Source: an archaeon
GTDB taxonomy: Archaea; Aenigmatarchaeota; Aenigmatarchaeia; Aenigmatarchaeales; JACQIB01
Direction: 5' to 3'
NCBI GenBank assembly: GCA_035291225.1
Contig: DATDSO010000004.1
Span: forward strand, 331,130 to 395,129
Length of the DNA stretch: 64,000 nt
The position numbers and the translations under genes were made by a program. The notes below the pieces were generated by a model that saw nothing but the letters and a program-made list of their open reading frames with translations, was not told the DNA's origin and searched no databases. This document shows positions 21,039 through 38,296 of the stretch, in pieces (positions within the stretch are counted from its first letter, which is position 1; each line of letters opens with the position of its first letter).

Positions 21039-21130
21039 AAGTGGAGAACTTCTCTCAAATTATGTGTCGTAGAAAAATTCCGCCGCTAAAAATTTCTGGC
21101 GTATTTATTTTTTCTTTTCACACACCAGTT

Positions 21131-21163
21131 GCGAGCGCGTTTGAGTTTACTCAACGCGCGAGC
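21131..21163. repeat. GC-rich palindromic intergenic repeat, copy 1
   Basis: gcgagcgcgtttgagtttactcaacgcgcgagc; first 20 nt recur in reverse complement at 38170-38204 with one mismatch. Confidence 0.55.
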
Positions 21164-21166
21164 TTA

Positions 21167-21961
21167 TCAGCTCCCTGTGCTTGAATAATGCTTCAGCCCG
21201 AATTTCCAAAAGCTGTATGCAACTGCGAAAGAAATTATTGCGACAAGCGGCGAAAGATATTGGAGCTGAGGCCAGATTCCTTTTCCTAAAATTGCGGCAG
21301 CTGGGAAATAATTTACGAAAGCGAGTGGCATGATAAAAGTCAGGAATGCCTTAATGTATTTATTGAAAATTTCCAAAGGGTAGTTTGTAAAATTTCCTGT
21401 TATCCAAACAATTTCAGTAATTGGACCGATTCTTGTTGTCCAGAACGCGAGCGTCGCTATTGCAAGAAAAATTGAATAAATTATCAGAGAGCCGCTTAAA
21501 AGAAAAATAGCAAGAGCGAAAAGCTTTTCCACGCTCCACACAACGCTAACAATTGGCATGCTTATTGCCAGCAAAGCAATTCCGCTTAATAAATCCCCAA
21601 ATCCATGTGTGTCAAAAGTAGAAATCATCATATATTTTATCGGCTTCATTGGCTGAACAAGAACTCTGTCAAGGCTGCCGCTGCGCACAGCTTCTTCAAC
21701 GCGCCAAGGAACTGTCCCTTTAAGAAAAGTATTCCACACTCCCCACGCAAAAACTTCAAGCGCGTATAGGAATAATAGCTCTTCCAATGTCCAGCCATTT
21801 ATATTTGGAATATTTTGCATAATAACCCAATAGAATAGGACGCCTATTACATTTGTGAGAACAAGCGCAAAAATTCCCAAAAAGAAATCTTCCGCATATT
21901 GAAAATCTTCGGCAATTCGCGCAACTGCAAATTTTTTCCACAACCTGAAAGTTTTTAACAT
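21167..21961 (-). CDS. ABC-2 type transporter permease subunit
   Basis: Polytopic membrane protein in operon with a second permease and an ABC ATPase; start set at internal Met (track ORF extends to 22006). Confidence 0.6.
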   Translation of the reverse strand: MLKTFRLWKKFAVARIAEDFQYAEDFFLGIFALVLTNVIGVLFYWVIMQNIPNINGWTLEELLFLYALEVFAWGVWNTFLKGTVPWRVEEAVRSGSLDRVLVQPMKPIKYMMISTFDTHGFGDLLSGIALLAISMPIVSVVWSVEKLFALAIFLLSGSLIIYSIFLAIATLAFWTTRIGPITEIVWITGNFTNYPLEIFNKYIKAFLTFIMPLAFVNYFPAAAILGKGIWPQLQYLSPLVAIISFAVAYSFWKFGLKHYSSTGS

Positions 21962-22044
21962 TTCAACCACCCCCCGAGGAGGGCTCCGCCCTCCTTCTGG
22001 GTTCATTCTCCCGAATTTCTGCTTCGCAAAATATAATTTTCATT

Positions 22045-22839
22045 TCAACCACCCTGTGAAAATATTCTTTTTTTCGCGCGGCTCCAAACAAAACCCACAA
22101 ATGCAGACAAAATCAAAATCCACAAAACCTGAAAGCCCAGAGCTGAAAAAATTTCCACGCCGGAGATTTTTCCAATGTAGATTGAAAGAGGGATATGAAA
22201 GGCTGCTGCGAATGGAAGCAGTTGAAGGATTGAAAAAAGCCATGCCGGGAAAAAATAAAGCGGCATGAGGGAGCCGGAAACCATGTCGCTAATCATGTTT
22301 CTGCTGAGCGTCAAGCCCCAGACTTTTCCGCCCGACCAGAAAACCCACATACCTGTTAGAAAAGCCAAAAGGAAATTTATCAGATATGAAAAAATCAGGC
22401 TGACGAAAAATAAAAGCGAGGCAGGCATAGAAACTTTTACAATTAAAACCGCGCCCAACAAAACAGGGAAGCCCCATGTCATAACTTTGTATCCTACAGC
22501 TCCGATATTCCCAAAAAGCCTGTAAAGCGGATAGCTCATTGGGATTGTAAGCTTTCGCGTTATTCCTCCCATGCGCACATCATACTCTATCTCACCTTCT
22601 ACGAAGCTCCAAGCAAGCGGCCGTATCAGCGAAGAAATTACCATGTAGGTTATCATAATTTCAAAAGTCATTCCATTTATTTCTGGAGTTCCTGCGGTTG
22701 TGAAAATCGCTTTCCATAAAAACCAGAATGCAATCAAAGTCAGGACAGACTGCGCGAGCCCGCCAATAAAATTCGTCCTGTAAGCAAGCATTTCCTTGAA
22801 AGAAGTTTCAGCAAGTTTCAAATATCTTCCCAGCATCAA
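22045..22839 (-). CDS. ABC-2 type transporter permease subunit
   Basis: About 6 TM helices; overlaps the upstream ABC ATPase gene by 4 nt. Confidence 0.6.
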   Translation of the reverse strand: MMLGRYLKLAETSFKEMLAYRTNFIGGLAQSVLTLIAFWFLWKAIFTTAGTPEINGMTFEIMITYMVISSLIRPLAWSFVEGEIEYDVRMGGITRKLTIPMSYPLYRLFGNIGAVGYKVMTWGFPVLLGAVLIVKVSMPASLLFFVSLIFSYLINFLLAFLTGMWVFWSGGKVWGLTLSRNMISDMVSGSLMPLYFFPAWLFSILQLLPFAAAFHIPLSIYIGKISGVEIFSALGFQVLWILILSAFVGFVWSRAKKRIFSQGG

Positions 22840-23837
22840 ATCCCCTCCCTGTAAATTCTCCTAATAATTTCCTCAATGTCAGGCTCCTCAATTTCAATAT
22901 CATGCACAGGATAGCGCGAGAGAATTTTTTTCAATGCTTCAGTCAGGGAAATTTTTTCAGTGTTGACGGAAATTTTTGCAGTATTTTCTTTTCTTTCTAA
23001 AATCTTTACTCCATTGATTGAAATTCTTTTCACAGGCTTGTGGAACTCAGCGAGCAAAATTCTTTCCTTTCCAAATTTTTTCTTTATCTCCGCGAACGAG
23101 CCATCGTAAATTATTTTTCCGCTGTCCACAATAATTATCCGCTCGCACAGCTCCTCAATGTCGCCGACATCGTGAGTTGTGAGAATAATCGTTGAGCCTG
23201 CTGAATTCACTTCTTTCAAAAACTTTCTCATGCGGTGCTTGCCTTCAACATCCAATCCAATTGTCGGCTCATCCAAGTAAACAATCGGCGGGCCGTGCAA
23301 AAGGCAGGCGGCAAGCTCGCAGCGCATTCTCTCGCCCAAAGAAAGCTTGCGCGTGGGCTGCTCCAGATATTTTTCTATTCCCAGAACCTGAGAAAATTTT
23401 TTCATGCGGGCGCGAAAATCTTTTTCAGGGATTTCATAAATTGCTTTCAAAAGTTCAAAAGTATTTTTCACAGGAATATCCCACCAGAGCTGGGTGCGCT
23501 GACCGAAAACAACTCCCATCTGGCGCGCATTTTTTTCGCGTTGCTCGTATGGAACCAAGCCATTCACAATTGCTTTTCCGTTCGTTGGCAAAAGAATTCC
23601 AGTGAGAATTTTTATCAGCGTGGACTTGCCCGCGCCGTTCGGCCCGATTATTCCAACAAATTCTCCGGGCGCGATTTTCAGGTTTATGTTTTTCAGCGCA
23701 GTGTGAATTTTATATTTTCTGCTAAACAAGCTCGCCAAATTTTCTTTCAATGTAGAGCCGCGCAAGTAGGTCTTGAATTCCTTGCTCAAGTCGCGGACAT
23801 CTATGATTGGGGCAATGGGCATTGTATCAGTCTCCAT
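22836..23837 (-). CDS. ABC transporter ATP-binding protein
   Basis: Walker A GPNGAGKST, signature LSLGERMR, Walker B VYLDEPT, H-loop TTHD. Confidence 0.85.
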   Translation of the reverse strand: METDTMPIAPIIDVRDLSKEFKTYLRGSTLKENLASLFSRKYKIHTALKNINLKIAPGEFVGIIGPNGAGKSTLIKILTGILLPTNGKAIVNGLVPYEQREKNARQMGVVFGQRTQLWWDIPVKNTFELLKAIYEIPEKDFRARMKKFSQVLGIEKYLEQPTRKLSLGERMRCELAACLLHGPPIVYLDEPTIGLDVEGKHRMRKFLKEVNSAGSTIILTTHDVGDIEELCERIIIVDSGKIIYDGSFAEIKKKFGKERILLAEFHKPVKRISINGVKILERKENTAKISVNTEKISLTEALKKILSRYPVHDIEIEEPDIEEIIRRIYREGI

Positions 23838-23960
23838 TTGTTTTGCTGCTTAAAAAATGCAGCGAAAAGAAAAATATTTTTGGCTCTAAGTTAAAAAAGA
23901 ATTAGTTGTATTTTACCATTGAAATCGCCTGCACTATATTGGGTTCGCAATTTAAAAAGC

Positions 23961-25136
23961 TTATAATTTTCTTTTTCCCACAAAACTGAAAACCAAAAAG
24001 TAAATCCAAATCACAACAGCCATGCCGATGAAGGCATAGTTATGATTTATTCCATAGAGAAATCCTCCCAACATTGGGCCTGTCATCAGTCCGAGTGAGC
24101 GGAATGAGCTTTCCAAGCCAAGAATAGTTCCGCGCTTACCTGAAACTTTTTTTGTCAGCAGCGATGGAACGGAAGGAAAAATAAGAGCATTGCCCAACAC
24201 GAAAACAGTCAGCGGAAGCAAAAGAGATATCCAATCTTTTGCAAAAAGCAGAGTCAAAAATCCCAAACCAGAAACAAGGAGTCCGGCTTGTATGAGTTTT
24301 ATTTCTCCGTATTTGTTAATGAATTTTCCGGTCAGGCCGCGCGAGAGAAAAATCAGCACACCTACATAAGTGAAAACTATTCCGAGCTGGGAGGAAGTGA
24401 AGCCGAGCCTCTCGCCGGTATATAGAGCAATAACAGCTTCATGCCCTCCAACCATGAAGCTCGCCATAAACGAAGATAGGAAAAGAAAAAGCATGTTTGA
24501 TTTCAGGTGCTGGAAAAAAGAAATTTCTTTTTCCACCAAATTTTTGCTTTCTGCCTTTTCTTTCAGTTCAGAAAGCTGGAAATTAACTGAAAATAAATTC
24601 GCGGCGCTCAATGCAAAAGAAAGTAAGAACGCGTCCCTTACAGAAAAATGCGAAGCCAAGCCCCCGAAAGCAGGGCCAAGAATAAAACCCGCGGACATAG
24701 CCATTCCAAAAAGCCCCATTACTTCGCCACGCTGTTTCTCAGTTGTGAAGTCTGAAAGAAGTGAAATGCATGAAGGAAAAACTGCTGCGGCAAAAACTCC
24801 GGCAAGCGCACGCGCAAACAAAATCATTGCAAGCGAATCAGAAAAAGCCAAAAGCAAATAAGAGGATCCGTAGCCTGCAACACCGGCCAGCAGAATTTTT
24901 TTTCTTCCAAATTTATCAGAAAGCTTTCCCATTATCGGGCTGAAAATCAAACTTGCAAACGCGAATGCCGAGACAATCATACCCAGTTCAATAGGCTTTG
25001 CTCCGATAGAGAGCGAATAAAATGGGAGTATTGGCAAAATAATTCCGAATCCAATGCTCGTCATTAAAACTGTAAAGAGGACTGTTTTTACTCCCGGAAC
25101 TTTTAGTATATCTTTGAATGACATTTTACCACCCAC
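23961..25136 (-). CDS. MFS-type membrane transporter
   Basis: 391 aa, 12 predicted TM segments, SDKFGRKK loop motif between TM2 and TM3. Confidence 0.8.
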   Translation of the reverse strand: MGGKMSFKDILKVPGVKTVLFTVLMTSIGFGIILPILPFYSLSIGAKPIELGMIVSAFAFASLIFSPIMGKLSDKFGRKKILLAGVAGYGSSYLLLAFSDSLAMILFARALAGVFAAAVFPSCISLLSDFTTEKQRGEVMGLFGMAMSAGFILGPAFGGLASHFSVRDAFLLSFALSAANLFSVNFQLSELKEKAESKNLVEKEISFFQHLKSNMLFLFLSSFMASFMVGGHEAVIALYTGERLGFTSSQLGIVFTYVGVLIFLSRGLTGKFINKYGEIKLIQAGLLVSGLGFLTLLFAKDWISLLLPLTVFVLGNALIFPSVPSLLTKKVSGKRGTILGLESSFRSLGLMTGPMLGGFLYGINHNYAFIGMAVVIWIYFLVFSFVGKRKL

Positions 25137-25192
25137 ACTAAAGAGTTAATTCCAAAATGAATATTTAAAAACTCCCAAGGCTAAATATTTTA

Positions 25193-25525
25193 GTGCCCCA
25201 AGATATTTCCTGTGTTGCCTGCGGCGGCAAGAATGTGCGCATGCGCGTATACAGTTCTACAAAATTTTTTGACGGCACTTGCTTGTGCTTGGACTGCGGG
25301 GCGGAGTTTTGAAAAAGATTTATAATGCTCCTTGGCATGAAACGTATTGCATTTTCATCACGGGGGCTTACCATACGAAAGAACCGAGCATTGATGCTAT
25401 GGTGCAACACCTTGTACGCGTAGCTAGACGAGTTGTATACGAACCTGGTGCCGGGCTTGTAGAGCGCAAGCCGCGCGACCCCTACGACCACGACTTTTCT
25501 GGTTTTTTCTCGAACGCAGGCTAAA
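25193..25525 (+). ncRNA. Candidate structured RNA locus (identity unresolved); 5' part could alternatively encode a 39 aa CxxC...CxCxxC zinc-ribbon peptide
   Basis: GC-rich island relative to flanks; nested long-range complementarity (gcctgcg 25218-24 with cgcaggc 25515-21; gttctacaa 25253-61 with ttgtagagc 25458-66; cggcac with gtgccg); overlapping long ORFs look non-protein-like. Confidence 0.25.
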
Positions 25526-25531
25526 CTTTTT

Positions 25532-27247
25532 TTACTTCCCCAATATCTCCCTAGCCAACTCCGCTTCGGCCGCATCGAATTCTTCCAAAACTTTCAAATC
25601 ATTTTCAGAAATAATTGTTTCCAAAACATCTCCTTCGGAAATTCCTCGCCCAACAACTGCGCCTTCAATTGAAATCGCAACGCGCTCGCCGGCTTTTGCT
25701 TTTTCAATTGTCTGGCTCTCCTGCTGGATTTGCCTTAGCGTGCCAATCTCATTTTTATTTTTCTGCAGGCGGCAGCCGGATTTTAATTCTCCTGACAGAA
25801 TTTCCACGCCAACAACAGCAGGCTCGCTCTGGCGGAAAACAAAGCCTGGTAAAATTCTCATACGGCAGGGCATTGTAATGCTCGCAAGCTTTTCCTGCTT
25901 CAATTTTTCCTTCTCGCTTTTCAGCCAAGAATCATACTCTTCAAACAATCTGTAAATAATATTGCTCGCCAGAATTTTCACTCCAGAATTTTTCACCTCG
26001 CTTAAAATTTCATCTCCAACAGGAACATTGAAAACAAAAATCAACTTTTTAAAATTATCTTTCAAAAGTTTTTGGTCCTGTATATCTCTTCTGGAAGCAG
26101 GCCCGACTTCTGCTTTTCTGATTGGGATTTCCTTTTGCTTGAGAATGTGAATCAAAGCTTCCAGTGATCCGAGAGTGTCTGCGCGTACAATTGCGCCTTC
26201 AATTTCCGACTCAAATTCAACTTCCTCAACTTCTGCTTTCAATTCCGCTTTTGCGGCATCAACTTCCTTTTCTGTTTTTACAGCGCGCACAGGCGAGCCT
26301 GCGACAGCGTTTTCAATTCCTGTTGCGGAAACTTTTATTCCAGCCGCAGCTGAAACAGAATCAACATTTTCAAAATCTTTTTCAACTCTCAATTCAGACA
26401 TTGGCTTTGGTTTTAGCAAAGCTTTCACTTTTCCCACAGCAGGCTCGCGGCCTCCTACAACCAGAAAATCCCCGCGGGAAATTTTTCCATCAAACAAAAT
26501 TACATCAATTGTTGTGCCAAGACCTTTGAAATCTTTTACCTCTAGAATAATTCCCTTTCCGCTCTCGCCGGAAAGTTCCAATTCTTTTTTCAAAAATGCT
26601 TGAGCCAAACCAGAAAGCATCATTATCAACTCGGGAATTCCCTCGCCTGTAATTCCGGAAACTGGGACAATAGCAACAGTTTTTTTGAAGTCAGAAACTC
26701 TGTCAAATCTTTCAGACTCAAACCCGCGCTGGGAAAGCTGGCCAAGAATTTTGTAAATAGCCTCGTCAGCTTTTTCTTTCACATGTTCGGGTTGCTTGTC
26801 CAAGCTTTTCAAAAAACTTTCTCCCTCATTTGCATGCCAACCTTCAACGCGGTCGATTTTTGTCGCAGCGACAATGAACGGAGTTTTAAACTGCTTTAGA
26901 AAATTCAGTGATTCATCAGTCTGCGGCTCAAATCCTTTTGTCACATCAACAACTAAAATCGCCAAGTCCGAGCATGAGCCCCCGCGTTTTCTCAAAGTTG
27001 TAAAGGCTTCGTGTCCTGGAGTGTCAATAAAAAGCAAACCTGGAATTTCCAAACTTATTTTTAATTTATCCAGAAGCTCGCCGGAAATTTTTCTTATAGA
27101 ATCAGAAGGAATTTCAGTTGCGCCTATTGCCTGCGTTATTCCGCCGGCTTCTTTTGCTGCGACAGCGCTCGACCTGATGCGGTCTAGCAAAGTTGTCTTT
27201 CCGTGGTCCACATGACCGAGAACGCAAACAATTGGCTGGCGCAACAT
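25532..27247 (-). CDS. infB: Translation initiation factor aIF5B (IF-2 homologue)
   Basis: G domain GHVDHGKTTLLD, DTPGHEAF, ATKIDR; domain order typical of aIF5B. Confidence 0.9.
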   Translation of the reverse strand: MLRQPIVCVLGHVDHGKTTLLDRIRSSAVAAKEAGGITQAIGATEIPSDSIRKISGELLDKLKISLEIPGLLFIDTPGHEAFTTLRKRGGSCSDLAILVVDVTKGFEPQTDESLNFLKQFKTPFIVAATKIDRVEGWHANEGESFLKSLDKQPEHVKEKADEAIYKILGQLSQRGFESERFDRVSDFKKTVAIVPVSGITGEGIPELIMMLSGLAQAFLKKELELSGESGKGIILEVKDFKGLGTTIDVILFDGKISRGDFLVVGGREPAVGKVKALLKPKPMSELRVEKDFENVDSVSAAAGIKVSATGIENAVAGSPVRAVKTEKEVDAAKAELKAEVEEVEFESEIEGAIVRADTLGSLEALIHILKQKEIPIRKAEVGPASRRDIQDQKLLKDNFKKLIFVFNVPVGDEILSEVKNSGVKILASNIIYRLFEEYDSWLKSEKEKLKQEKLASITMPCRMRILPGFVFRQSEPAVVGVEILSGELKSGCRLQKNKNEIGTLRQIQQESQTIEKAKAGERVAISIEGAVVGRGISEGDVLETIISENDLKVLEEFDAAEAELAREILGK

Positions 27248-27297
27248 ATCGGATCACAAAGAAATTTCGTGCGCGAGACTTATAAATTAGAATTTTA

Positions 27298-28377
27298 TTA
27301 TGCAGGTTTAGCCATTCCAATATCTGCTAGTGCGCGCTCCACTTCCCCTTCATATCCATCTTGCTGGCCAAACACCGACATACCAGCATCTCTGCTTCTT
27401 CCATAAGCTGTCTTTTGTGCAGCTTTCTTAGCAATTCCCGGCTCAATCAAACCAGTTTTCGTGTGATAACCTATCTGCAGGCATTGAGAAAGAAAATCTA
27501 AAAATCTGTCCGGCTTGTAGAGCTTAGCACCTTCACCATCTTCTTTCATTGTATACGCCACACCCAATCCAATTGCCAATGCCTTATTATTGAATGGAAA
27601 TAGAGGGGCATCTTCTACTAGTCTCCTTTCTTTTCTTTTTATCTGAGAAACATATCTTTCGACAATTTCCATTAAAACTTTTACTGGATATCCGTTTATT
27701 GTATACTCCTGCGTTCTCCTCAGAAATGCCTGAGATTTTTCTCTCAAAACTTTTTCTTCGATAGGATCTCTCCCTTTTATCTCACTGCCAACAGACGGCT
27801 TCATTGCAAATACAGTAGCGTAGCAATTATCTATGAATTCTCCAAGAGTATTAAGATCCTCAACAGATGCGAGACTGTCGGCATCATCGAAAAAAATTGC
27901 GATCTCCCTTTCTATTGGAGGTTCCCTTATTTTTTCTAATATCTGGTGGATGTGATCGCTCTTCTCTTGTGCTGATACGTCCCTGCCAGATCGCCTGAGG
28001 GCAGCAACATCATCAGATATTTTACCTGGAATGCCGCCTGTACTTTTTTTCAATTCCCTCACGATATAACGTCCAATTACTGTTATCCCACCTCTTCCGA
28101 TGTAAGTGTGTGTAGATGTATCTGGAAGAGCATCGAATGGAATAATAGGAACAAGCAACCTTCCATCAAACTCTTCAACAAGCTTTTTCTTAACTTCTCT
28201 CAAAATTGTTGTTTTGCCTGTGCCTGCCTCTGCCACAAGCCTAACAGACTTCTCAGCCTTTATCAAATCAAAAACATCTTCAGCATGCTCTGTTGATATT
28301 ACAACCCTTGCCTTAGTAGGATCTGTCTTTAATCCGTAGAAATCCAGATATCTCACAGGAGTTTTTAGCATGAGCAT
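27298..28377 (-). CDS. P-loop NTPase of unknown function (AAA-like)
   Basis: Walker A-like LVAEAGTGKTT near residue 50 and Walker B-like IAIFFDDAD; no further family assignment possible. Confidence 0.55.
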   Translation of the reverse strand: MLMLKTPVRYLDFYGLKTDPTKARVVISTEHAEDVFDLIKAEKSVRLVAEAGTGKTTILREVKKKLVEEFDGRLLVPIIPFDALPDTSTHTYIGRGGITVIGRYIVRELKKSTGGIPGKISDDVAALRRSGRDVSAQEKSDHIHQILEKIREPPIEREIAIFFDDADSLASVEDLNTLGEFIDNCYATVFAMKPSVGSEIKGRDPIEEKVLREKSQAFLRRTQEYTINGYPVKVLMEIVERYVSQIKRKERRLVEDAPLFPFNNKALAIGLGVAYTMKEDGEGAKLYKPDRFLDFLSQCLQIGYHTKTGLIEPGIAKKAAQKTAYGRSRDAGMSVFGQQDGYEGEVERALADIGMAKPA

Positions 28378-28444
28378 TCAAAATTAATGTGGGAACTTCT
28401 ATAAATATTTGCTTTTATTCCAGAATCTCAACTTCTTACCTGCA

Positions 28445-29179
28445 TCAACACCATTTTTTGTAAACTCTAGACAAATCAACTGTTTTTTTCAAATCTCTCA
28501 TCAAAACTTTCCCGGCTTTACCACTTATATTTTCTGCTCCGAAAATTTCTGCAGAGCGGAATTTTGTTTTGAAAATCAAAGATAAGTAAATGTTGAAGCT
28601 TTCTGCTATTTTGTCATAATGCCTTCTCCGAACCTGAGATTTATGTTTTCTAATGGCAGAAATTTTCTCCTCAAATTCTTTGCTTATATCAACCAGAAAA
28701 ACTTCATCTGAGTTATCATGAACTTTCTGAAAAATATCAGGATATACCCAAAGTATGAATTTCAAAATTGGAATTTGGAAATTCTTAAGAGACTCCAGAA
28801 CAATTCTATTAGTCTCTCTATGCTCCGGATGGCCTTCCGAAAGCGACGGGAGCAAAGCAACATCAGGTTTGAATTCTTTTACAATTTCAGTTATTTTAGT
28901 TTTAAATTTTTCCCTCACGAAATTTTTAATCAAACAAAGTTTTCCGTTTGGCACTCCAAGTTCCCAGAAATTTTTTACTTCCAGAAAATTTCTTTCAGAT
29001 GCAGCTTCTTTTGCGCGCAGAATTTTATTTTTTTCAAAATCTGAAAAATCAGTCCCTCTTCTGCTATCTGTGATATAAACATATCCGACCTCCCATCCTT
29101 TGTTCAGAAGTTTTATTATAGACCCACCGGCGCCGATTACAATATCATCATTGTGGGCCTGAAAACAGAGCAGTTTCAT
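28445..29179 (-). CDS. PIG-L/LmbE-family N-acetylglucosaminyl deacetylase-like protein
   Basis: N-terminal AHNDDIVIGAGG (HxDD...GxGG) motif of the LmbE family. Confidence 0.75.
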   Translation of the reverse strand: MKLLCFQAHNDDIVIGAGGSIIKLLNKGWEVGYVYITDSRRGTDFSDFEKNKILRAKEAASERNFLEVKNFWELGVPNGKLCLIKNFVREKFKTKITEIVKEFKPDVALLPSLSEGHPEHRETNRIVLESLKNFQIPILKFILWVYPDIFQKVHDNSDEVFLVDISKEFEEKISAIRKHKSQVRRRHYDKIAESFNIYLSLIFKTKFRSAEIFGAENISGKAGKVLMRDLKKTVDLSRVYKKWC

Positions 29180-29213
29180 AAATTAATTCGTTTTTTCAGA
29201 TTTATGAACATTT

Positions 29214-30161
29214 CTATTCAAGAATTTCAACAGCATCAACAACCCCATCATTATCCCTATCAACACCCTCAACAACTTTTGCAAACACGCCTCTTTCTCT
29301 TTTGTTTCCTGCGCAAACCTCATCAAACTTTTGCAGAAGCGCGAGCAGGGCAGCGCGCGTCCCTTGGTTTCCTTTTCCCGCAATAACTAAAATTTCCTTC
29401 TCTTTAGAGAAAGGATTTTTTGCTTTCACAATCATTCCCTCCTCTTCTGTGTAATGCTTATCAGAAAATTCCGAGTAAATGCTCGAGAAAAAATTTGCCT
29501 GTTGTTTCATTTCAATGAATTTTATCGGCAGACGGGGGTTTAACTTCGCTGTAATTGCATTCACGCGCGGACCCCCGATTAAAATCAAGTTTTCTTTCAT
29601 CTCCTCGGGCCGTAATTCTGTATCTATTTTCACGCAGGCCGGCGGTGAGTGATGGAGAAAAGTTCCGAGGAAAAGCGCGAACTGCGCAGCAGCCGGCCCG
29701 TCTTTTGCTCTTGTTTTAGCAGGACCGTGCGGCTCCGGGCTTCCCATGATTATTTTTGCATTTATTTTTCCGTCCAGCACAAATGGCTCAAGAAATTTTT
29801 TCTGTTCCCTGCTTAAGGAGAAAATTTTCTGCGCAGGCTCCATGGGCTTGAGAAGAATTGCAAAAGCAGTATGCGTGGGCGCGTAGAATTTTGCAGTTGC
29901 GCCGAGCTTGCTTTCCTCGCCAACTTTTTCAATCAAGCCTGCGGTTTGCAGATTTCTGATGTGATAGTAAACTTTCTGCTCGTGGACTTTGAGTTTTTTC
30001 CCGATTTGCTTCGGGTAAGAAGGGCTCTGAGAAAGCGTTTGCAGAATTTTCCATGCTAGAGGGCTTAAAGCTGACTTAAGCTTATGTGGCTCAAGGATTT
30101 TCGCGACTGCCGAAAAGTTTTTCCCCTCTTTTTGCTCAATTATATGCGCCATATCAACCAT
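29214..30161 (-). CDS. Winged-helix transcriptional regulator with C-terminal putative ligand-binding domain
   Basis: N-terminal wHTH (LAWKILQTL...PKQIGKKLKVHEQKVYYHIRNLQTAGLIEK); divergent from the glmS array. Confidence 0.55.
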   Translation of the reverse strand: MVDMAHIIEQKEGKNFSAVAKILEPHKLKSALSPLAWKILQTLSQSPSYPKQIGKKLKVHEQKVYYHIRNLQTAGLIEKVGEESKLGATAKFYAPTHTAFAILLKPMEPAQKIFSLSREQKKFLEPFVLDGKINAKIIMGSPEPHGPAKTRAKDGPAAAQFALFLGTFLHHSPPACVKIDTELRPEEMKENLILIGGPRVNAITAKLNPRLPIKFIEMKQQANFFSSIYSEFSDKHYTEEEGMIVKAKNPFSKEKEILVIAGKGNQGTRAALLALLQKFDEVCAGNKRERGVFAKVVEGVDRDNDGVVDAVEILE

Positions 30162-30289
30162 TACAAATATTCTTTTAATACTACTAAAAATATGTTGATA
30201 AGGTTTATAAAGCCCACGGGAGCATGATGTTCTATACTTTCAGTTCATAAGCGATTTTAATAGGAGAACTTTTTTAATTTTGTGATAAC

Positions 30290-32062
30290 ATGTGTGGAAT
30301 ACTCGGCTACTACGGACCAAAAAATGCGGCGCAAGTTGTAATCGATGGCCTTAAGAAATTAGAATACCGCGGCTACGATTCTGCTGGCATTGCTATTCCG
30401 AATGGGTTGGGATTTTTTGTCCACAAAAACGCCGGCCGCGTTGCTGATGTTTTTTCAAATTTTTCTTTGAACGGATTTTCCGGTGGAATAGCAATTGGCC
30501 ACACGCGTTGGGCAACGCACGGAGGAGTTACAGCAGCAAACGCGCACCCACACTTGAGCAACAACGGAAAAATTGCAGTTGCCCACAATGGGATCATAGA
30601 AAATTACCAAGAGCTGCGCGACCAGTTAATCGGAGAGGGGTTTGTTTTCAAAAGCCAGACCGATACAGAAGTTATTCCGATTTTGATTGAAAAATTCATG
30701 CGGCAGGGAAAAAATTTTGTGGATGCAACAAAGGAAACTTTGAAAACTGTAGAGGGCAGCTGGGCAATTGCTGCCTACCACATAGATGAAAAGAAATTAA
30801 TCGGCGCGCGCCACGAATCCCCGCTCGTGTTTGGCGTGGGTGACGGAGAATTTTTTCTGGGTTCAGACATTCCTGCTTTCCTTGATTATACAAAAAAAGT
30901 TATTGATTTAGACGATAAAGAGATGGTTGTTGTTGGAGAAGGTGGGTATCAATTATTTAGCTTAGCGAAAAATATTCCAGTCGGCCGCGCGCCATACTTG
31001 ATTGACTGGGACGCGGAGCAGGCAAAGAAAGGAAATTTCGACCACTTTATGATTAAGGAAATTATGGAGCAGGCTGAAGTTATCAAGCGCGCGATTGCGC
31101 AGGATAAAAATATTGTGATGAAAATTGCCGATGAAATAAAAAACGCAAAAGATGTTTATTTGATTGCGTGCGGCACGGCTTTCCATGGCTGCATTTCCGC
31201 GAGCTATGTTTTTGCGAAAATTGCGAAGAAAAGCGTGCGGCCGATTTATGCGCACGAGTTTCCGCAGTTCGCGGAATTTTTAGGTCCAGAAAGTTTGGTG
31301 ATTGCTGTTTCACAATCTGGAGAAACCGCAGACACTTTGAACGCGATTAGAATTGCAAAAGAGCGCGGGGCAAAAGTTTTCTCAATCACAAATGGAATGG
31401 GCTCTTCTCTTGCGCGCGAAAGCACTGGTGCGCTGATTCAAAAAGCCGGTCCGGAAATTTGCGTTGTCTCAACAAAGGCTTACACTTCCCAGCAGGCAAT
31501 ACAGGCAATGCTTGCATACTCAATGATTGGAAAATATGATGAGTGCATTTCAGCATTAAAAAATCTCGTGATGATGATTTTTTATTTGACTTCTGAAAAT
31601 GCGCGCGTCTACACAAAAAATCTTGCGGAGAAATTAAGATACGCGCAGCACATTTATCTTTTGGGGCGAGGCATGCTTTATCCTGCTGCGCTTGAGGCTG
31701 CGCTGAAAATAAAAGAAGTTTCTTACATTCACGCAGAAGCTTACGCGGGTGGGGAGCTGAAGCATGGAAATATTGCTTTGATTGAGCACGGAACCCCATG
31801 CATAATTTTCACGAACGAGGAAACCGAGCGCGAGATTTTGAGCAATGCTGCTGAGCTGAAAGCGCGCGGCGCTTACATTATTGGAGTCGGCCCGAAAAAC
31901 AATGAGCTGTTTGATTACTGGATAAAAGTCTGGGACGCGGGAATTTTCAATTCGGTTGTGCAGACAATTCCAATGCAGATTCTAGCTTACCAGCTCGCGA
32001 TTTTACGCGGCTGCGATCCAGACAAACCAAGAAATTTGGCGAAGAGTGTTACGGTGAAATAA
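30290..32062 (+). CDS. glmS: Glutamine--fructose-6-phosphate aminotransferase (GlmS)
   Basis: N-terminal MCGILGY Ntn-amidotransferase start, two SIS domains, 590 aa. Confidence 0.9.
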   Translation: MCGILGYYGPKNAAQVVIDGLKKLEYRGYDSAGIAIPNGLGFFVHKNAGRVADVFSNFSLNGFSGGIAIGHTRWATHGGVTAANAHPHLSNNGKIAVAHNGIIENYQELRDQLIGEGFVFKSQTDTEVIPILIEKFMRQGKNFVDATKETLKTVEGSWAIAAYHIDEKKLIGARHESPLVFGVGDGEFFLGSDIPAFLDYTKKVIDLDDKEMVVVGEGGYQLFSLAKNIPVGRAPYLIDWDAEQAKKGNFDHFMIKEIMEQAEVIKRAIAQDKNIVMKIADEIKNAKDVYLIACGTAFHGCISASYVFAKIAKKSVRPIYAHEFPQFAEFLGPESLVIAVSQSGETADTLNAIRIAKERGAKVFSITNGMGSSLARESTGALIQKAGPEICVVSTKAYTSQQAIQAMLAYSMIGKYDECISALKNLVMMIFYLTSENARVYTKNLAEKLRYAQHIYLLGRGMLYPAALEAALKIKEVSYIHAEAYAGGELKHGNIALIEHGTPCIIFTNEETEREILSNAAELKARGAYIIGVGPKNNELFDYWIKVWDAGIFNSVVQTIPMQILAYQLAILRGCDPDKPRNLAKSVTVK

Positions 32063-32063
32063 A

Positions 32064-32708
32064 ATGATAAAAGGTTTTGTTTCAGATATGGACGGCACTG
32101 TTGTGAATAGCGAGACGCTTTGCTTTGAGTCAACAAAAATGTTTTTGGAAAAATTTGGGATAGAATTTAGTAAAAAAGATTTTTCAGATATTATAGGATA
32201 TACAGAAATTGAAGCAGCAAAATTATTGAAAGAGAAGTTCAAAATATCATTAAGCATAGATTACATATTTTCTGAGAGAAGAAAATTCTTGGAAGCATTG
32301 AATGAAAATGCGTATTTGATAGAAGATTACTTGCGGCTGATATCTTTGCTAAAAAATAATAATGTAAAAATTTCTCTAGCTTCTTCCTCACCTAAGAAGC
32401 TAATAGAGAAAACTTTGAAGAGGAATGCGATAGAACAACATTTTATCGCTTCTGTTTCTGCTGAAGAAGTTGGTAGCAAAGTTAATGCCTATAAAACTGC
32501 TGTCGAGAAAATGGGACTTAGAACTTCGGAGTGTTTTGCACTTGAAGATTCTGTTTTCGGAGCAAGAGCTGCGAAAGATGCAGGACTCTATTGCGTTTTA
32601 ATTCCCAACGAGTTCATGAACGGCCATGATACTTCTTTCGTAGATGAGGTCCATAAAAGCATTCGAGACTTTCTGCACAAAGGAAAAGTCTTAAAGGAGC
32701 TGAGCTAA
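32064..32708 (+). CDS. HAD-superfamily phosphatase/phosphomutase-like hydrolase
   Basis: DMDGTV motif I at N-terminus, beta-phosphoglucomutase-like layout. Confidence 0.75.
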   Translation: MIKGFVSDMDGTVVNSETLCFESTKMFLEKFGIEFSKKDFSDIIGYTEIEAAKLLKEKFKISLSIDYIFSERRKFLEALNENAYLIEDYLRLISLLKNNNVKISLASSSPKKLIEKTLKRNAIEQHFIASVSAEEVGSKVNAYKTAVEKMGLRTSECFALEDSVFGARAAKDAGLYCVLIPNEFMNGHDTSFVDEVHKSIRDFLHKGKVLKELS

Positions 32709-34738: not shown

Positions 34739-36063
34739 AAACAGTTTTCCTTTGCGGTGGAATTGGCAAGCGCATGCATCCGATTGCAGAAGAAAAATTT
34801 CTGCTGAAGTTCGCTGGAAAAACTTTGCTGGAGCGCCATATTGATGCTGCGCGCTCAGCAGGCTTGAAAGATTTTGTGATTATTGGAAACCCGCATAATA
34901 TTGAAAAAATAAAGGATTTGTGTTCAAGACAAAATGGAGCAAATTTTGAATTTGCTGTGCAGAAAGAGCCAAAAGGAATGGCGGACGCAATGCTTTCCGC
35001 CAGCCACATTTTTGACGGAGAAGATTTCATTGTTGTTAACACAAATGATATTTTTGAGCCAAGCGCTTACAAAAATATTTTGGACGCTGCGAAAAATTCC
35101 GAGCACGATTCTCTGCTTACTGGATATGAAGTGCAAAAATATTTTCCCGGCGGTTATTTCCGCACAAACGAAAATGGAGAAATGATAGAGCTTGTTGAAA
35201 AGCCGGGCGCGGAAAATATGCCGAGCAATCTTCTGAATATTGTTTTGCACTTGCACAGAAACACAAAAAAGCACTTCAAGCATTGGGCGGAAACAAAATC
35301 TGAAAAGGATGATATTTATGAGCGGGCTCTGACTGAAATGGTGAAGAGCGGCGGAAAAATAAAAGTTGTTCCCTATTCAGGATTCTGGACTGCAATAAAA
35401 TATCCATGGCACATTCATGACGCGGCAGAATTTTTCATGAAAAATCAAGAGAGAAAAATTTCTCCTAATGCGAAAATTTCCGAGCGCGCGGTTGTTGATG
35501 GAAATGTTGTGATTGAAGATGGTGTTAGAATTTTTGAGAACGCTGTTGTGCGCGGACCGGCTTACATCGGAAAAAATACAATCATTGGAAACAACGCGCT
35601 CGTTTGGTCAGGCTCGCATATTGGAGACAACTCCGTTGTGGGATTCTCAACTGAGATAAAGCATTCATACATAGGAGACAACTGCTGGTTTCATTCAAAT
35701 TATGTTGGAGATTCAATTATACTGGACAACACAACTTTCGGAGCAGGAACAATAACAGCAAACCTGCGTTTTGACAATGGAAATGTAAAAGTCAATGTAA
35801 GAGGAGAAAGAGTTGACACAGGCACAGAAAAATTCGGCGCGATTTTCGGAGAGAACTGCAAAACAGGAATCAATTGCGTTATACTTCCGGGAATAAAAAT
35901 CGGGCCGAATAGTTTTGTCGGGCCGCATGTGCATTTGGACGAAGACCTAGAGCCAGACAAAATGATTTTCCTGAAGCAAAGCCATGTAGTAAAAGAAAAC
36001 ACAATAAAGCCCGGGAAAAGCTATGAGGAGTTCAGAAAAAAACTTCCGGATGTTGGGAAGTGA
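34735..36063 (+). CDS. Bifunctional sugar-1-phosphate nucleotidyltransferase / hexapeptide-repeat acetyltransferase (archaeal GlmU-like)
   Basis: N-terminal nucleotidyltransferase fold (LCGGIGKRM) and C-terminal left-handed beta-helix hexapeptide repeats. Confidence 0.8.
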   Translation: MKTVFLCGGIGKRMHPIAEEKFLLKFAGKTLLERHIDAARSAGLKDFVIIGNPHNIEKIKDLCSRQNGANFEFAVQKEPKGMADAMLSASHIFDGEDFIVVNTNDIFEPSAYKNILDAAKNSEHDSLLTGYEVQKYFPGGYFRTNENGEMIELVEKPGAENMPSNLLNIVLHLHRNTKKHFKHWAETKSEKDDIYERALTEMVKSGGKIKVVPYSGFWTAIKYPWHIHDAAEFFMKNQERKISPNAKISERAVVDGNVVIEDGVRIFENAVVRGPAYIGKNTIIGNNALVWSGSHIGDNSVVGFSTEIKHSYIGDNCWFHSNYVGDSIILDNTTFGAGTITANLRFDNGNVKVNVRGERVDTGTEKFGAIFGENCKTGINCVILPGIKIGPNSFVGPHVHLDEDLEPDKMIFLKQSHVVKENTIKPGKSYEEFRKKLPDVGK

Positions 36064-36067
36064 TTCT

Positions 36068-37252
36068 ATGCGCCTCTACGAATTTGAAAGCAAGCAAATG
36101 CTGAAAAAAAATGGAATAAAAATTCCGCAGTCAGTTCTTTCCACTTCTGCGATTTCTGAAATCCCGTTCAACAGCGAAATTGCTGTGAAAGCCCAAGTGC
36201 TTTCTAATGGAAGGGGAAAAGCTGGCGGAGTGAAAGTTTTTTCCAGCCCAGAGGAAGCGAAAAATTTTGCGAACTCTTTGCTCGGCTCGGTTTTGCTGAA
36301 AGAAAAAGTGAAGTCTGTTTTGATTGAAAAGAAAATTAAAACAAAAAACGAATTCTACATAAGCTTTGCTTATGACACTGACACGCAGCTGCCGGTTTTG
36401 GTTTTGAGCAAATCCGGCGGAGTGGATGTCGCCGAGCTAACAAAAAACAGCTGGCTTGCGAAAATTCCCATTGACCCTTTGCTTGGGCTGAAAGAGTGGC
36501 AGGCGAGAGATGCTGCTGTTGACGCAGGATTCGCAAGCGAGCTGATTCCAAAAATTTCTGATTTTGCCTTGAGGCTTTACAATGTTTTCTCATCAGAGGA
36601 CTGCAGGCTTTTGGAAATAAATCCGCTGAGCCTGACAGAAGAAGGAGAGCTTGTTGCAGTCGGCGCGCTTATAGATTTGGACAACGATGCGGGCTATAAG
36701 CACAAGGAAAGAAATTATCCGCCGCGCATGCCCGGAGTTGGACGCGAACTTACAGACGGAGAAATGCTTGTGAAAAAATCTGACGAGGCAGATTACCGCG
36801 GCTCAATAAAATTTATTGAGCTCGGCGGAGAAATTGGATTTCTCGCAGCAGGTGGGGGCGGGAGCATGGCTGCGATGGACGCTTTAATTATTGCCGGAGG
36901 AAATCCCGCGAACTATGCGGAATTTTCCGGAGACCCGCCGAAAGAAAAAGTCTACGCGCTCGCGAAAGCAATTCTCTCGCAGAAAAATTTGGCCGGCTTG
37001 TGGATTGTCGGGGCAATTGCAAATTTCACGCGCATGGACCAGACAATGCAGGGAGTTGTTGAAGCCCTGAGAGAAGCAAAGCCAAAATATCCGATTGTTG
37101 TTCGGCGCTCGGGCCCGTATGAAAAAGAAGGATTGCAAATGCTGAAAGATGTTGGGGTCGAGCTCGGGCTTGACATTGAAGTGCACGGCTCTGAAGTTTC
37201 AATGACAGCGACTGCGAAGACAATTGCGGAGAAAGTTAAAAAACAAAAATGA
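36068..37252 (+). CDS. Succinyl-CoA synthetase beta-like ATP-grasp subunit (possible citryl-CoA synthetase / ACL beta)
   Basis: ATP-grasp N-terminus (QVLSNGRGKAGGVKV) and CoA-ligase C-terminus (GFLAAGGGGSMAAMD...GGNPANYAEF); start set at first Met after upstream stop. Confidence 0.75.
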   Translation: MRLYEFESKQMLKKNGIKIPQSVLSTSAISEIPFNSEIAVKAQVLSNGRGKAGGVKVFSSPEEAKNFANSLLGSVLLKEKVKSVLIEKKIKTKNEFYISFAYDTDTQLPVLVLSKSGGVDVAELTKNSWLAKIPIDPLLGLKEWQARDAAVDAGFASELIPKISDFALRLYNVFSSEDCRLLEINPLSLTEEGELVAVGALIDLDNDAGYKHKERNYPPRMPGVGRELTDGEMLVKKSDEADYRGSIKFIELGGEIGFLAAGGGGSMAAMDALIIAGGNPANYAEFSGDPPKEKVYALAKAILSQKNLAGLWIVGAIANFTRMDQTMQGVVEALREAKPKYPIVVRRSGPYEKEGLQMLKDVGVELGLDIEVHGSEVSMTATAKTIAEKVKKQK

Positions 37253-38163
37253 TTTTTATGAGCATTCTAATAAACAAAGAAACAAAAGTTTTAATTCAGG
37301 GAATTACTGGACGCAGCGGGCAGGTTGCGCTCCACACAATGAAAGAATACGGGACAAAAGTTTTGGCAGGTGTGACTCCGGGGAAGGGTGGGCAGGAAGT
37401 TGAAGGGGTTCCGGTTTTCAATTCAGTTCACGAGGCTTTGAAAAAATTTCCGGAAATAAATTGCTCAGCAATTTATGTTCCGCCCGCAGCTTGCCGCGAG
37501 GCAGTGATTGAGGCGGTTTCAAATGGAATTAAATTGGTGAATGTAATTACAGAAGGAGTTGCGATTCAGGACACGGTTCAAATGCTGCGCTACGCAAAAC
37601 TTTATGGAGCGCGAATTGTCGGGCCATCTTCAATTGGAATTTTAACTCCGAAGCAATGCAAGATTGGAGTTCTCGGCGGCTCTGCTGTGGACACTGACAA
37701 AATTTATTTTCCCGGAAGCATTGGAGTGATTTCGAAAAGCGGAGGCATGACAAATGAAACTGCATGGGTTGTGCGTTCAGCTGGATTGGGCCAGTCAACT
37801 GTTGTTGGAATTGGCGGGGATGTGATTTTGGGAACTGATTTTGTGGATTTGCTGAAAATGTTTGAGGCAGACAAGGAAACAAAAGGGGTTGTAATTTTCG
37901 GAGAGCCTGGCGGGACTTATGAGGACAAGATTGCCGAGGCTGTCAGGAAAAAAGAATTCACAAAACCGATTGCTGCTTTTATTGCAGGAGTTTTCGCCGA
38001 GAGGCTTCCGCACGGAACGCAGTTCGGCCACGCGGGCGCGCTGATTGAAAATGGAAGGGGCTCGCCTGTGCAGAAAATTAAAATTTTGAAAGAGGCTGGG
38101 GTTTTAATTGCGGAAACGCATGATATGTTGGGGGAGGTTATAAAAAGAGCTATTGAAAATTAA
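37249..38163 (+). CDS. Succinyl-CoA synthetase alpha-like CoA-binding subunit
   Basis: KVLIQGITGRSGQ CoA-binding start and phosphohistidine loop GTQFGHAGA. Confidence 0.8.
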   Translation: MIFMSILINKETKVLIQGITGRSGQVALHTMKEYGTKVLAGVTPGKGGQEVEGVPVFNSVHEALKKFPEINCSAIYVPPAACREAVIEAVSNGIKLVNVITEGVAIQDTVQMLRYAKLYGARIVGPSSIGILTPKQCKIGVLGGSAVDTDKIYFPGSIGVISKSGGMTNETAWVVRSAGLGQSTVVGIGGDVILGTDFVDLLKMFEADKETKGVVIFGEPGGTYEDKIAEAVRKKEFTKPIAAFIAGVFAERLPHGTQFGHAGALIENGRGSPVQKIKILKEAGVLIAETHDMLGEVIKRAIEN

Positions 38164-38169
38164 TTAAAG

Positions 38170-38268
38170 GGCTCGCAGGTTTTCGTAAACTCAAACCCGC
38201 TCGCGACTAATGTGGAATAAAAATATTTTCACACATTAGTTAGCGAGGCTCATGGGTTTACCCTGAGC
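38170..38268. other. Structured intergenic region: GC-rich repeat copy 2 plus two stem-loops
   Basis: ggctcgcaggttttcgtaaactcaaacccgctcgc (38170-38204); inverted repeats actaatgtg/cacattagt (38207-38240) and gctcatggg/accctgagc (38248-38268). Confidence 0.5.
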
Positions 38269-38296
38269 CGAGCAAATCAAAATAAGTTGTGATAAC

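Follow-up and report, generated by a model that had tools for sequence, protein, structure and literature searches.

An archaeal locus between aIF5B and glmS as a probable composite of a conserved regulator gene and an accessory deacetylase-ATPase block

Introduction

In the 64-kb stretch of archaeal DNA analyzed here, referred to below as the window, three minus-strand genes lie in series between aIF5B (25532-27247, minus strand) and glmS (30290-32062, plus strand), and their arrangement raises the question of whether they work as a single system, and of which family the ATPase among them belongs to. The genes encode a 315-amino-acid (aa) wHTH-S_layer_C protein, called the regulator here (29214-30161), a 244-aa PIG-L/LmbE-family protein (28445-29179), and a 359-aa AAA+ ATPase (27298-28377). 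Small archaeal genomes often contain orphan ATPases.

Results and Discussion

Gene content and arrangement

All three open reading frames (ORFs) were recovered on the minus strand at exactly the coordinates of the original prediction, together with every motif that it had listed for the ATPase (AEAGTGKTT and IFFDDAD) and the deacetylase. They are genuine genes that have been maintained, rather than ORFs that arose by chance, given that the identical ATPase sequence is present on at least 24 contigs, drawn from many samples, with unchanged neighbors in every case, and that a full-length, intact variant with 97% identity exists. The genes are co-directional and tightly packed, with gaps of 34, 67, and 50 nt down to aIF5B, and may be co-transcribed by read-through. 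The regulator and glmS have a common gap of 128 nt (30162-30289), and the cluster adjoining the trio contains glmS, HAD, NTP-transferase, GlmM-like, and GlmU-like genes.

This layout is what would be expected of a module of three genes for amino-sugar or envelope-glycan metabolism, with the wHTH protein acting as the regulator of the deacetylase, of the ATPase, and of the divergent glmS cluster, and two further observations favor it, i.e., a sugar nucleotidyltransferase gene comes after the closest PIG-L homolog, and the regulator and glmS are divergent neighbors in three species. The evidence from the relatives of these genes nevertheless largely refutes such a module, which we now regard as highly unlikely.

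A two-gene block absent from the sister species

The comparison with sister species covered three contigs from two species (L102 and L104 from one, L103 from the second), in all of which the gene order is glmS, regulator (315 aa), and aIF5B, with neither PIG-L nor ATPase at this exact site. As the regulator stop codon is followed by the aIF5B start after only 41 nt in these species, the PIG-L and ATPase genes of the window constitute an indel, a block of approximately 1.97 kb (27249..29222) that was delimited by the gene maps, the junction sequences, and the breaks of the blastn alignment at window positions 29223 and 27248. The proteins around it have identities to those of the window of 84-88% (regulator), 91.6-93.2% (aIF5B), and 81-92% (GlmS). 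The short motif AAATTCT is present at each edge of the block (29221-29227 and 27289-27295), and the TATA-like box of aIF5B, AATTTATAAG (27279..27288, minus strand), which comes straight after the regulator stop codon in the sister species, is kept directly after the block.

The event was probably an insertion in the window lineage, where PIG-L ranks lowest in GC (0.346) among the 29 window genes analyzed. A single deletion in the ancestor of both sister species is a possible alternative, given that the polarity rests on three approximately equidistant species and on composition; the more distant aIF5B loci (50-61% identity) cannot polarize the indel, because the genes upstream are unrelated there and synteny has been lost. 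An additional conserved element at 25183-25314 received no support as a structured RNA from either Rfam or folding.

The linkage of the trio fails in the other relatives as well, given that no relative of any one gene is linked to another. The neighborhoods of all seven ATPase homologs contain neither a PIG-L nor a wHTH-S_layer_C gene, that of the closest PIG-L homolog contains neither an ATPase nor a wHTH-S_layer_C gene, and a tblastn search with the trio against 80 aIF5B loci returned no matches. The original prediction had treated the three genes as a unit and had named two results that would speak against it together, a match of the ATPase to a well-characterized housekeeping family and an unlinked trio in relatives; the genes did prove to be unlinked, and the ATPase matched no such family.

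The deacetylase

The 244-aa protein carries the motifs AHNDDIVIGAGG and HPEH and matches the PIG-L family (Pfam PF02585) with an E-value of 3.5e-19, at 70 bits versus a cut-off of 28.2, which bears out the family first proposed. Its zinc/catalytic residues H9, D11, and D12 (29144-29155, minus strand) and H117 and H120 (28820-28831, minus strand) are conserved, being invariant in comparison with the homologs P0002 and P0003. The best PDB sequence matches were the diacetylchitobiose deacetylases, with E-values of approximately 3e-17 (phmmer, residues 2-184), and BcZBP (2ixd), and the scores fell below the NCBIfam equivalog cut-offs of BshB1 (76.6 vs. 182.5 bits), BshB2 (37.2 vs. 195 bits), and MshB (17.6 vs. 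224 bits). These sequence features point to a zinc-dependent de-N-acetylase, which may act on a substrate of the GlcNAc type. The amino-sugar theme that had been read into its location is weakened, given that the position beside the glmS cluster results from the indel.

The regulator and its promoter

The 315-aa protein had been described as a wHTH protein with a C-terminal domain of approximately 200 aa, and the Pfam matches agree with this description. The N-terminal part matches HTH_20 (31.5 bits vs. 27), HTH_5 (23.5 bits vs. 22), and TrmB, with an ArsR/Phr-like wHTH at about residues 32-96, and residues 177-277 match S_layer_C (PF05124; E-value 7e-14), an alignment that spans only positions 97-175 of the 177 in the profile. 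TIGR01564 also scored above its cut-off. As no signal peptide, hydrophobic N-terminus, or TM segment was found in the 315 residues, the protein is a cytoplasmic one, in which a wHTH is joined to an S-layer-like domain. Its label in NCBI, “S-layer protein”, which arises from the S-layer-like domain (PF05124; TIGR01564) of the C-terminal half, over-reaches. A literature search on proteins that combine a wHTH with an S-layer domain yielded nothing useful.

The regulator gene is kept between glmS and aIF5B in the sister species, and its promoter region is almost invariant in the three species. A search for a regulator-binding site in the 128-nt gap, which had been suggested at the outset, did find a conserved palindromic element, although this lies on the promoter of the regulator itself and not on the glmS side. 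In this region (30149..30212, minus strand), a TATA-like box, CTTTATAAACC, is followed by the inverted repeat TATCAAC/GTTGATA, which is perfect over 7 nt and has its arms at 30194-30200 and 30150-30156, the second of them over codons 2-4. In L103, both arms are changed (TATTAAC/GTTAATA) and the symmetry is kept. Across the window, the half-site TTATCAAC shows no enrichment (4 matches vs. 2 expected). The palindrome is thus a candidate auto-operator, which may mediate autoregulation, and its location speaks against a regulator of the glmS cluster, as does the lack of conservation of the glmS-proximal half of the gap, where L102 has a 31-nt deletion.

The ATPase as a member of a very small family

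The original prediction could not place the ATPase in any known family, and this still holds, given that its Pfam matches are generic and sub-threshold, i.e., AAA_16 and AAA_22, the latter with 26.7 bits versus a cut-off of 27. A word-indexed homology search with the protein found only itself, and the same search with the family alignment returned P0011 alone, because the P-loop words flooded the candidate list. The PDB sequence search with the protein gave only P-loop noise, and when the family profile was used instead, dynein and ABC proteins were matched, through the P-loop only, with no Cdc6 at E-values of up to 1. The Walker A pattern likewise overwhelmed the scan of metagenome contigs, from which the one match obtained, L101, was rejected as a family member, being an unrelated 1029-aa, high-GC P-loop (STAND-like) ORF whose similarity is confined to the surroundings of the Walker A (residues 34-124). 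The window protein and its seven homologs make up eight clusters among 1.84 billion representatives, so that the window ATPase is an outlying member of a tiny archaeal AAA+ family, which, judging from these searches, appears to define a very rare new AAA+ subfamily that has no family model.

The family alignment identifies a Walker A motif (AEAGTGKTT, residues 49-57; 28207..28233, minus strand), in which A51, G52, G54, and K55 are invariant, and a DExD-box-like hhhhDDxD Walker B motif (IFFDDAD, residues 161-167; 27877..27897, minus strand), in which D167 is invariant and which is preceded by a strand (158-164) in the structural model. The pair R220-R221 of the AFLRR motif (27715..27720, minus strand) is also invariant and, in the model, ends a helix (205-220) right before a strand (222-227), which, from the AAA+ topology, would be the site expected for the box VII arginine finger. 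Unusually, the residue at the sensor-1 position is an invariant lysine.

The structural model was built from eight sequences, following the rejection of a single-sequence AlphaFold model with a pLDDT of 35. The ranking of the structural neighbors is shallow (Cdc6 16.4, TnsC 15.8, MuB 15.5, and PAB2304 14.5), with approximately 100 C-terminal residues unaligned, and the predicted fold is that of the ORC/Cdc6-TnsC/MuB (initiator) structural group. The features of the initiator-clade AAA+ proteins that were found are the P-loop, the DExD Walker B, the box VII arginine, and a helical insert between strands 2 and 3, which consists of three helices in the model and occupies the place where the proteins of this clade carry a substrate-binding motif.

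Relatives of the ATPase and their membrane-protein partner

Homologous proteins of approximately 475 aa are encoded next to the ATPase gene at four loci (L086, L100, L089, and L097), in both gene orders, and a homolog of this partner lies 3.5 kb from the ATPase at a fifth, L083. The partner has a signal peptide, one internal TM segment at about residues 308-338, a cytoplasmic tail of approximately 135 aa, and weak matches to DUF11 and the Ig-like NPCBM_assoc. An integrase and D5-primase element next to the L097 homolog was rejected as a part of this arrangement, given that it integrated separately, ending close to a tRNA-Asp, and that the syntenic L089 lacks it. Only at L083 does the ATPase homolog have an IS200-type Y1 transposase in its vicinity, at a distance of 2.8 kb.

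The family may act mainly together with the single-pass membrane protein encoded beside it, either in the assembly of the envelope or of surface proteins or in trans-membrane signaling, in the manner of the ExeA-type AAA_22 ATPases. The copy in the window would then be a remnant that has no partner, or would have another one. The persistence of the adjacency through an inversion of gene order and the architecture of the partner argue for this reading, and the N-terminal YLxYWGLKExPT of the family may resemble the FGLxExPF start of the ExeA/GspA ATPases. On the other hand, no homolog of the partner was found in the 64 kb of the window, and the adjacency could reflect phylogenetic inertia, given that five of the seven homologs lie within approximately 10 kb of rpoH/RNA polymerase genes and that all seven come from unclassified metagenome assemblies. 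Overall, we consider this reading unlikely. A more specific version, which is quite improbable, would make the family and its partner an undescribed two-component module of small unclassified archaea, coupling an ORC/Cdc6-like AAA+ switch to the cell surface (e.g., in surface-protein assembly, host attachment, or trans-membrane signaling to DNA), with the window copy as a horizontally acquired, partner-less outlier. That the partner is conserved among the relatives argues against a role for the ATPase that is directed at DNA alone.

It is also very doubtful that the ATPase, alone or together with the deacetylase, is an accessory defense or conflict gene, such as a STAND/AAA+ sensor like RdrA or BrxC. 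PADLOC gave no significant match to the ATPase, PHROGs, plasmid tblastn, and two scans of viral contigs were all negative, the protein has no effector domain, and its homologs occupy stable housekeeping neighborhoods adjacent to the RNA polymerase operon, where the membrane partner is conserved as well. An origin in a mobile element or a known defense system finds no support in these same searches.

Proposed account of the locus

The account that we favor, with somewhat better than even confidence, is that the locus is composite rather than a single system of three genes, and that in it a fixed regulator gene is accompanied by an accessory PIG-L/ATPase block whose ATPase belongs to the initiator structural group. 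The conserved core consists of the glmS operon in one direction and of the regulator followed by aIF5B in the other, with the regulator probably repressing itself through the palindrome that flanks its transcription start. The block of 1.97 kb was most likely inserted between the regulator stop codon and the aIF5B promoter, and each gene seemingly has its own TATA-like box. Given that the ATPase keeps K55, D164, D165, D167, R220, and R221, it may work as an ATP-dependent oligomeric switch, in which ATP-bound protomers would assemble head-to-tail on a polymer or partner, with the arginine finger acting in trans and hydrolysis resetting the assembly. By analogy with every close structural neighbor, the most likely substrate would be DNA, and most members of the family would be coupled to the tailed membrane protein that is absent in the window.

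This account corrects two points, in that the apparent operon resolves into a conserved regulator gene and an insertion of two genes specific to the lineage, and that the protein with the public label “S-layer protein” is a cytoplasmic wHTH protein. It also outlines a very rare AAA+ subfamily, with a predicted Orc1/Cdc6-TnsC fold and, mostly, a membrane-protein partner; should the two be functionally coupled, an initiator-type ATPase would be serving in an unusual role. The practical weight of these findings is limited by the frequency of orphan ATPases in small archaeal genomes, and by the fact that this one is known from its sequence and predicted fold.

Comparison with known systems

The archaeal Orc1/Cdc6 proteins (PDB 2qby, 1fnn, and 1w5s) share the predicted fold of the ATPase, so that the affinity raised in the original prediction stands at the level of the fold, but not at that of membership by sequence, where an NCBIfam scan gave only noise and the Cdc6_C winged-helix domain (PF09079) was not detected at the C-terminus. 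The window ATPase also differs from these proteins in its invariant sensor-1 lysine, in the membrane-protein partner of its relatives, in being dispensable in the sister species, and in having no adjacent origin-like intergenic region, given that the flanking gaps of just 50 and 67 nt contain no AT-rich origin with recognition boxes. A fast-evolving Orc1/Cdc6 paralog with a role in replication initiation or MCM loading is a most unlikely identity. TnsC and MuB (PDB 9g0f, 7rzy, 7m99, and 8xvb) are similar in fold, but the ATPase has no transposase or TniQ gene nearby, and neither its surroundings in the window, up to a distance of 10 kb, nor those of the seven homologs contain a DDE transposase (TnsB, MuA, or TniA) or a target selector. 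The “Archaeal ATPase” family (PF01637; PAB2304 2qen and SSO1545 2fna) gave only matches below the gathering score (24 vs. 33.2 bits), and none at all with the window ATPase itself.

The deacetylase has the fold family and the AHxDD and HP(D/E)H motifs in common with the Thermococcales Dac and with BshB/BcZBP, although Dac is longer (approximately 270 vs. 244 aa), the matches are modest, and the genomic context is unrelated. The Methanococcales-type S-layer proteins (TIGR01564) are secreted, with a signal peptide and both S_layer_N and S_layer_C, whereas the regulator has a wHTH N-terminus and a partial S_layer_C. Finally, the ArsR regulators of the Phr/PH1932 type (PDB 2p4w and 1uly) match its N-terminal wHTH (E-values from 2e-4 to 0.011), and the dimerization helix of Phr is replaced in its C-terminal half by the S-layer-like domain.

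Gene order and the indel between the regulator and aIF5B

Three minus-strand open reading frames lie between aIF5B (25532-27247) and the plus-strand cluster of glmS, HAD, NTP-transferase, PGM/PMM and GlmU-like genes that starts at 30290, at exactly the coordinates originally predicted and with the quoted motifs present in their products: an AAA+ ATPase of 359 aa (27298-28377), a PIG-L deacetylase of 244 aa (28445-29179; Pfam PIG-L, E 3.5e-19) and a protein of 315 aa (29214-30161), in which Pfam finds an N-terminal ArsR/TrmB-type wHTH and S_layer_C (PF05124, E 7e-14, residues 177-277). At NCBI, they are named "ATP-binding protein", "PIG-L deacetylase family protein" and "S-layer protein", respectively.

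The archaeon is uncultured; its nearest GTDB species representatives by aIF5B are Aenigmatarchaeota MAGs (53-61% identity), and the 90% cluster of this protein provided three sister contigs from two species (L102 and L104 from one, L103 from the other). In all three, glmS occupies one strand, and a divergent 315-aa wHTH-S_layer_C gene is followed 41 nt later by aIF5B, with protein identities to the window of 84-88% for the regulator, 91.6-93.2% for aIF5B and 81-92% for GlmS. Given this gene order, which lacks the two intervening genes, and a blastn alignment with L102 that stops at window position 29223 and picks up again at 27248, the PIG-L and ATPase genes are an indel of approximately 1.97 kb. 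The TATA-like box of aIF5B, TTTATAAGTCTC, comes after the stop codon of the regulator gene in the sister species and after that of the ATPase gene in the window.

The three genes had been proposed as a single unit, a reading that was not confirmed, as the deacetylase and ATPase are missing from sister loci that keep the regulator between glmS and aIF5B. The linkage also fails elsewhere in relatives, with no PIG-L or wHTH neighbour at any of the seven loci of ATPase homologues, and neither an ATPase nor a regulator gene near the closest PIG-L homologue (45% identity), which is followed by a nucleotidyltransferase gene.

An insertion in the lineage of the window is favoured. The motif AAATTCT is present at both edges of the block, where seven bases in AT-rich DNA are weak evidence, and PIG-L has the lowest GC (0.346) of the 29 window genes analysed, near that of the HAD gene (0.347), which is also absent from L102, while the ATPase gene (0.41) is unremarkable among them. 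A single deletion is possible, given three roughly equidistant species, and the unrelated genes found upstream of aIF5B in remoter relatives have no bearing on the choice. Indels cluster in the aIF5B region, a hot spot whose conserved core consists of glmS, the regulator, aIF5B and RLI.

Other differences were observed in this region. Downstream of aIF5B, L102 and L104 lack an MFS gene and a three-gene ABC-transporter block (21051-25183). They also lack the low-GC HAD hydrolase gene that separates glmS from the NTP-transferase gene (32064-32708). In L103, aIF5B is followed instead by a DUF2683/ParE toxin pair. Between the end of aIF5B (25532) and the MFS start (25136), roughly 132 nt of non-coding sequence (25183-25314), which overlap a probably spurious ORF (25165-25575), match L102 9119-9250 and also L104 at 94% identity, compared with 77-87% for the flanking coding DNA, and are conserved despite different neighbouring genes in the two species. 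With a TATA-like TTATAAAT just upstream on the minus strand, no match in Rfam or ARAGORN and ordinary folding energy (z 0.1 and -0.7), this stretch may be an unannotated small RNA or regulatory element.

Elsewhere, the UDP-GlcNAc cluster is followed by ATP-citrate-lyase-like subunit genes (36023-39025; ATP-grasp_2/Citrate_bind, CoA-ligase and citrate-synthase domains), an unexpected metabolism for a small archaeal genome (longest contig about 0.87 Mb). Three further large, uncharacterised ORFs had no Pfam match at E up to 1e-4 or 1e-5 (13328-15118, plus, 596 aa; 15606-16634, minus, 342 aa; 61805-62842, plus, 345 aa).

The regulator and the deacetylase

The 315-aa protein (HLE07409.1) lacks both a signal peptide and TM segments. 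It is a cytoplasmic protein in which a wHTH, similar at the N-terminus to the regulators Phr and PH1932, is joined to the C-terminal half of an S_layer_C domain. The public label "S-layer protein" derives from a TIGR01564 match to the C-terminal domain, and is misleading, probably an over-annotation. The proposed search for a binding site in the 128-nt gap shared with glmS yielded a candidate on the regulator side, whose half is near-invariant in the three species, against 77-87% identity for coding DNA, but not on the glmS side, which is unconserved. The regulator promoter holds a TATA-like box and then a perfect 7-nt inverted repeat, TATCAAC ... GTTGATA, the second arm of which covers regulator codons 2-4. 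In L103, both arms are altered and the palindrome is kept (TATTAAC ... GTTAATA), a mirrored change with a chance of roughly 0.03 by a rough estimate. This conserved repeat and its mirrored change point to autoregulation through a putative palindromic operator.

The PIG-L protein, a zinc-dependent de-N-acetylase, retains His9, Asp11, Asp12, His117 and His120, is nearest by sequence to the diacetylchitobiose deacetylases of Thermococcales and BcZBP, and scores far below the equivalog cut-offs of BshB and MshB. The predicted family assignment held. The link to amino sugars is only a weak lead, given that the position beside the UDP-GlcNAc genes results from the indel.

The ATPase family and its neighbours

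The ATPase could not be placed in a family, as had been reported from the sequence, with no family-level match in Pfam, NCBIfam, PADLOC, PHROGs, plasmids, viral contigs or PDB sequences, and only generic, sub-threshold AAA_16 and AAA_22 matches in Pfam. A word-indexed search of 5.8 billion clusters matched nothing beyond the protein itself, and when 1.84 billion representatives were scanned exhaustively with phmmer, 11 proteins, query included, matched at E up to 1e-3; seven of these are full-length homologues (372-413 aa, 27-33% identity). P0012 (a 1045-aa repeat protein) and P0013 (a 209-aa P-loop protein) are marginal, unrelated matches, and P0004 (110 aa), 97% identical to the window ATPase over residues 1-73 and unrelated thereafter, is probably an assembly artefact, chimeric or frameshifted, and no real variant. 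An 873-kb contig encodes exactly this protein, as do at least 24 contigs from numerous samples, with the context the same each time. An intact 97%-identical variant retains every motif, and the gene is therefore maintained.

The eight family sequences align end to end and share an N-terminal YLxYWGLKExPT motif, P-loop residues A51, G52, G54 and K55, a Walker B hhhhDDxD (D167 invariant), K193 after strand 4 and AFLRR (R220, R221). From this alignment, AlphaFold gave a usable model (pLDDT 78, pTM 0.74), in which a five-stranded AAA+ core, interrupted between strands 2 and 3 by three helices, is accompanied by a helical lid and an additional helical C-terminal region.

Four of the seven homologues have an immediate co-directional neighbour that encodes a protein of about 475 aa; it follows the ATPase gene in L086 and L100 and precedes it in L089 and L097. 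A fifth copy, in L083, is 3.5 kb from the ATPase gene. These proteins (38-66% mutual identity) combine a signal peptide with a single internal TM segment (about 308-338) and a tail of about 135 aa. They give weak Ig-like matches (DUF11 and NPCBM_assoc), and the 64-kb window encodes no homologue of them. That the adjacency outlived a gene-order inversion suggests a functional link. Shared ancestry could partly account for the adjacency, since five of the seven loci lie no more than about 10 kb from rpoH/RNA polymerase genes (listed: L082-L084, L086, L089 and L097). That the ATPase and the membrane protein form a module specific to small archaea is conceivable but improbable.

The L097 copy also adjoins an element with integrase and D5-primase genes, which integrated separately and ends near tRNA-Asp. 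In L089 (2796-6003) and L097 (2258-3535), MCM is called as a short gene (425-445 aa), preceded in L089 by a LAGLIDADG endonuclease gene, which suggests a split or intein-disrupted MCM.

Proposed mechanism and relation to known systems

Given the conserved catalytic set, the arginine pair, which the model places at the box VII position, and the helical insert, which sits where initiator-clade proteins carry a substrate-binding motif, the ATPase may act as an ATP-dependent oligomeric switch, whose protomers would assemble head-to-tail on a polymer or partner and be reset by ATP hydrolysis. In the wider family, the cytoplasmic tail of the membrane protein is a plausible second partner.

The original guess of an Orc1/Cdc6-like protein stands as far as the modelled fold, which places the ATPase in the initiator-type AAA+ group, but the specific tests failed: no family member has the Cdc6_C winged helix, and neither NCBIfam nor a PDB profile search gave a sequence-level match to Orc1/Cdc6. 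The window gene also leaves no space for an adjacent origin, and the sister species lack it. The ATPase and its homologues make up a rare AAA+ subfamily, so far undescribed, whose fold is of the Orc1/Cdc6-TnsC kind; the member in the window sits on a small accessory block that was probably inserted. For this subfamily, DNA would be the most likely substrate by analogy with Orc1/Cdc6, TnsC and MuB.
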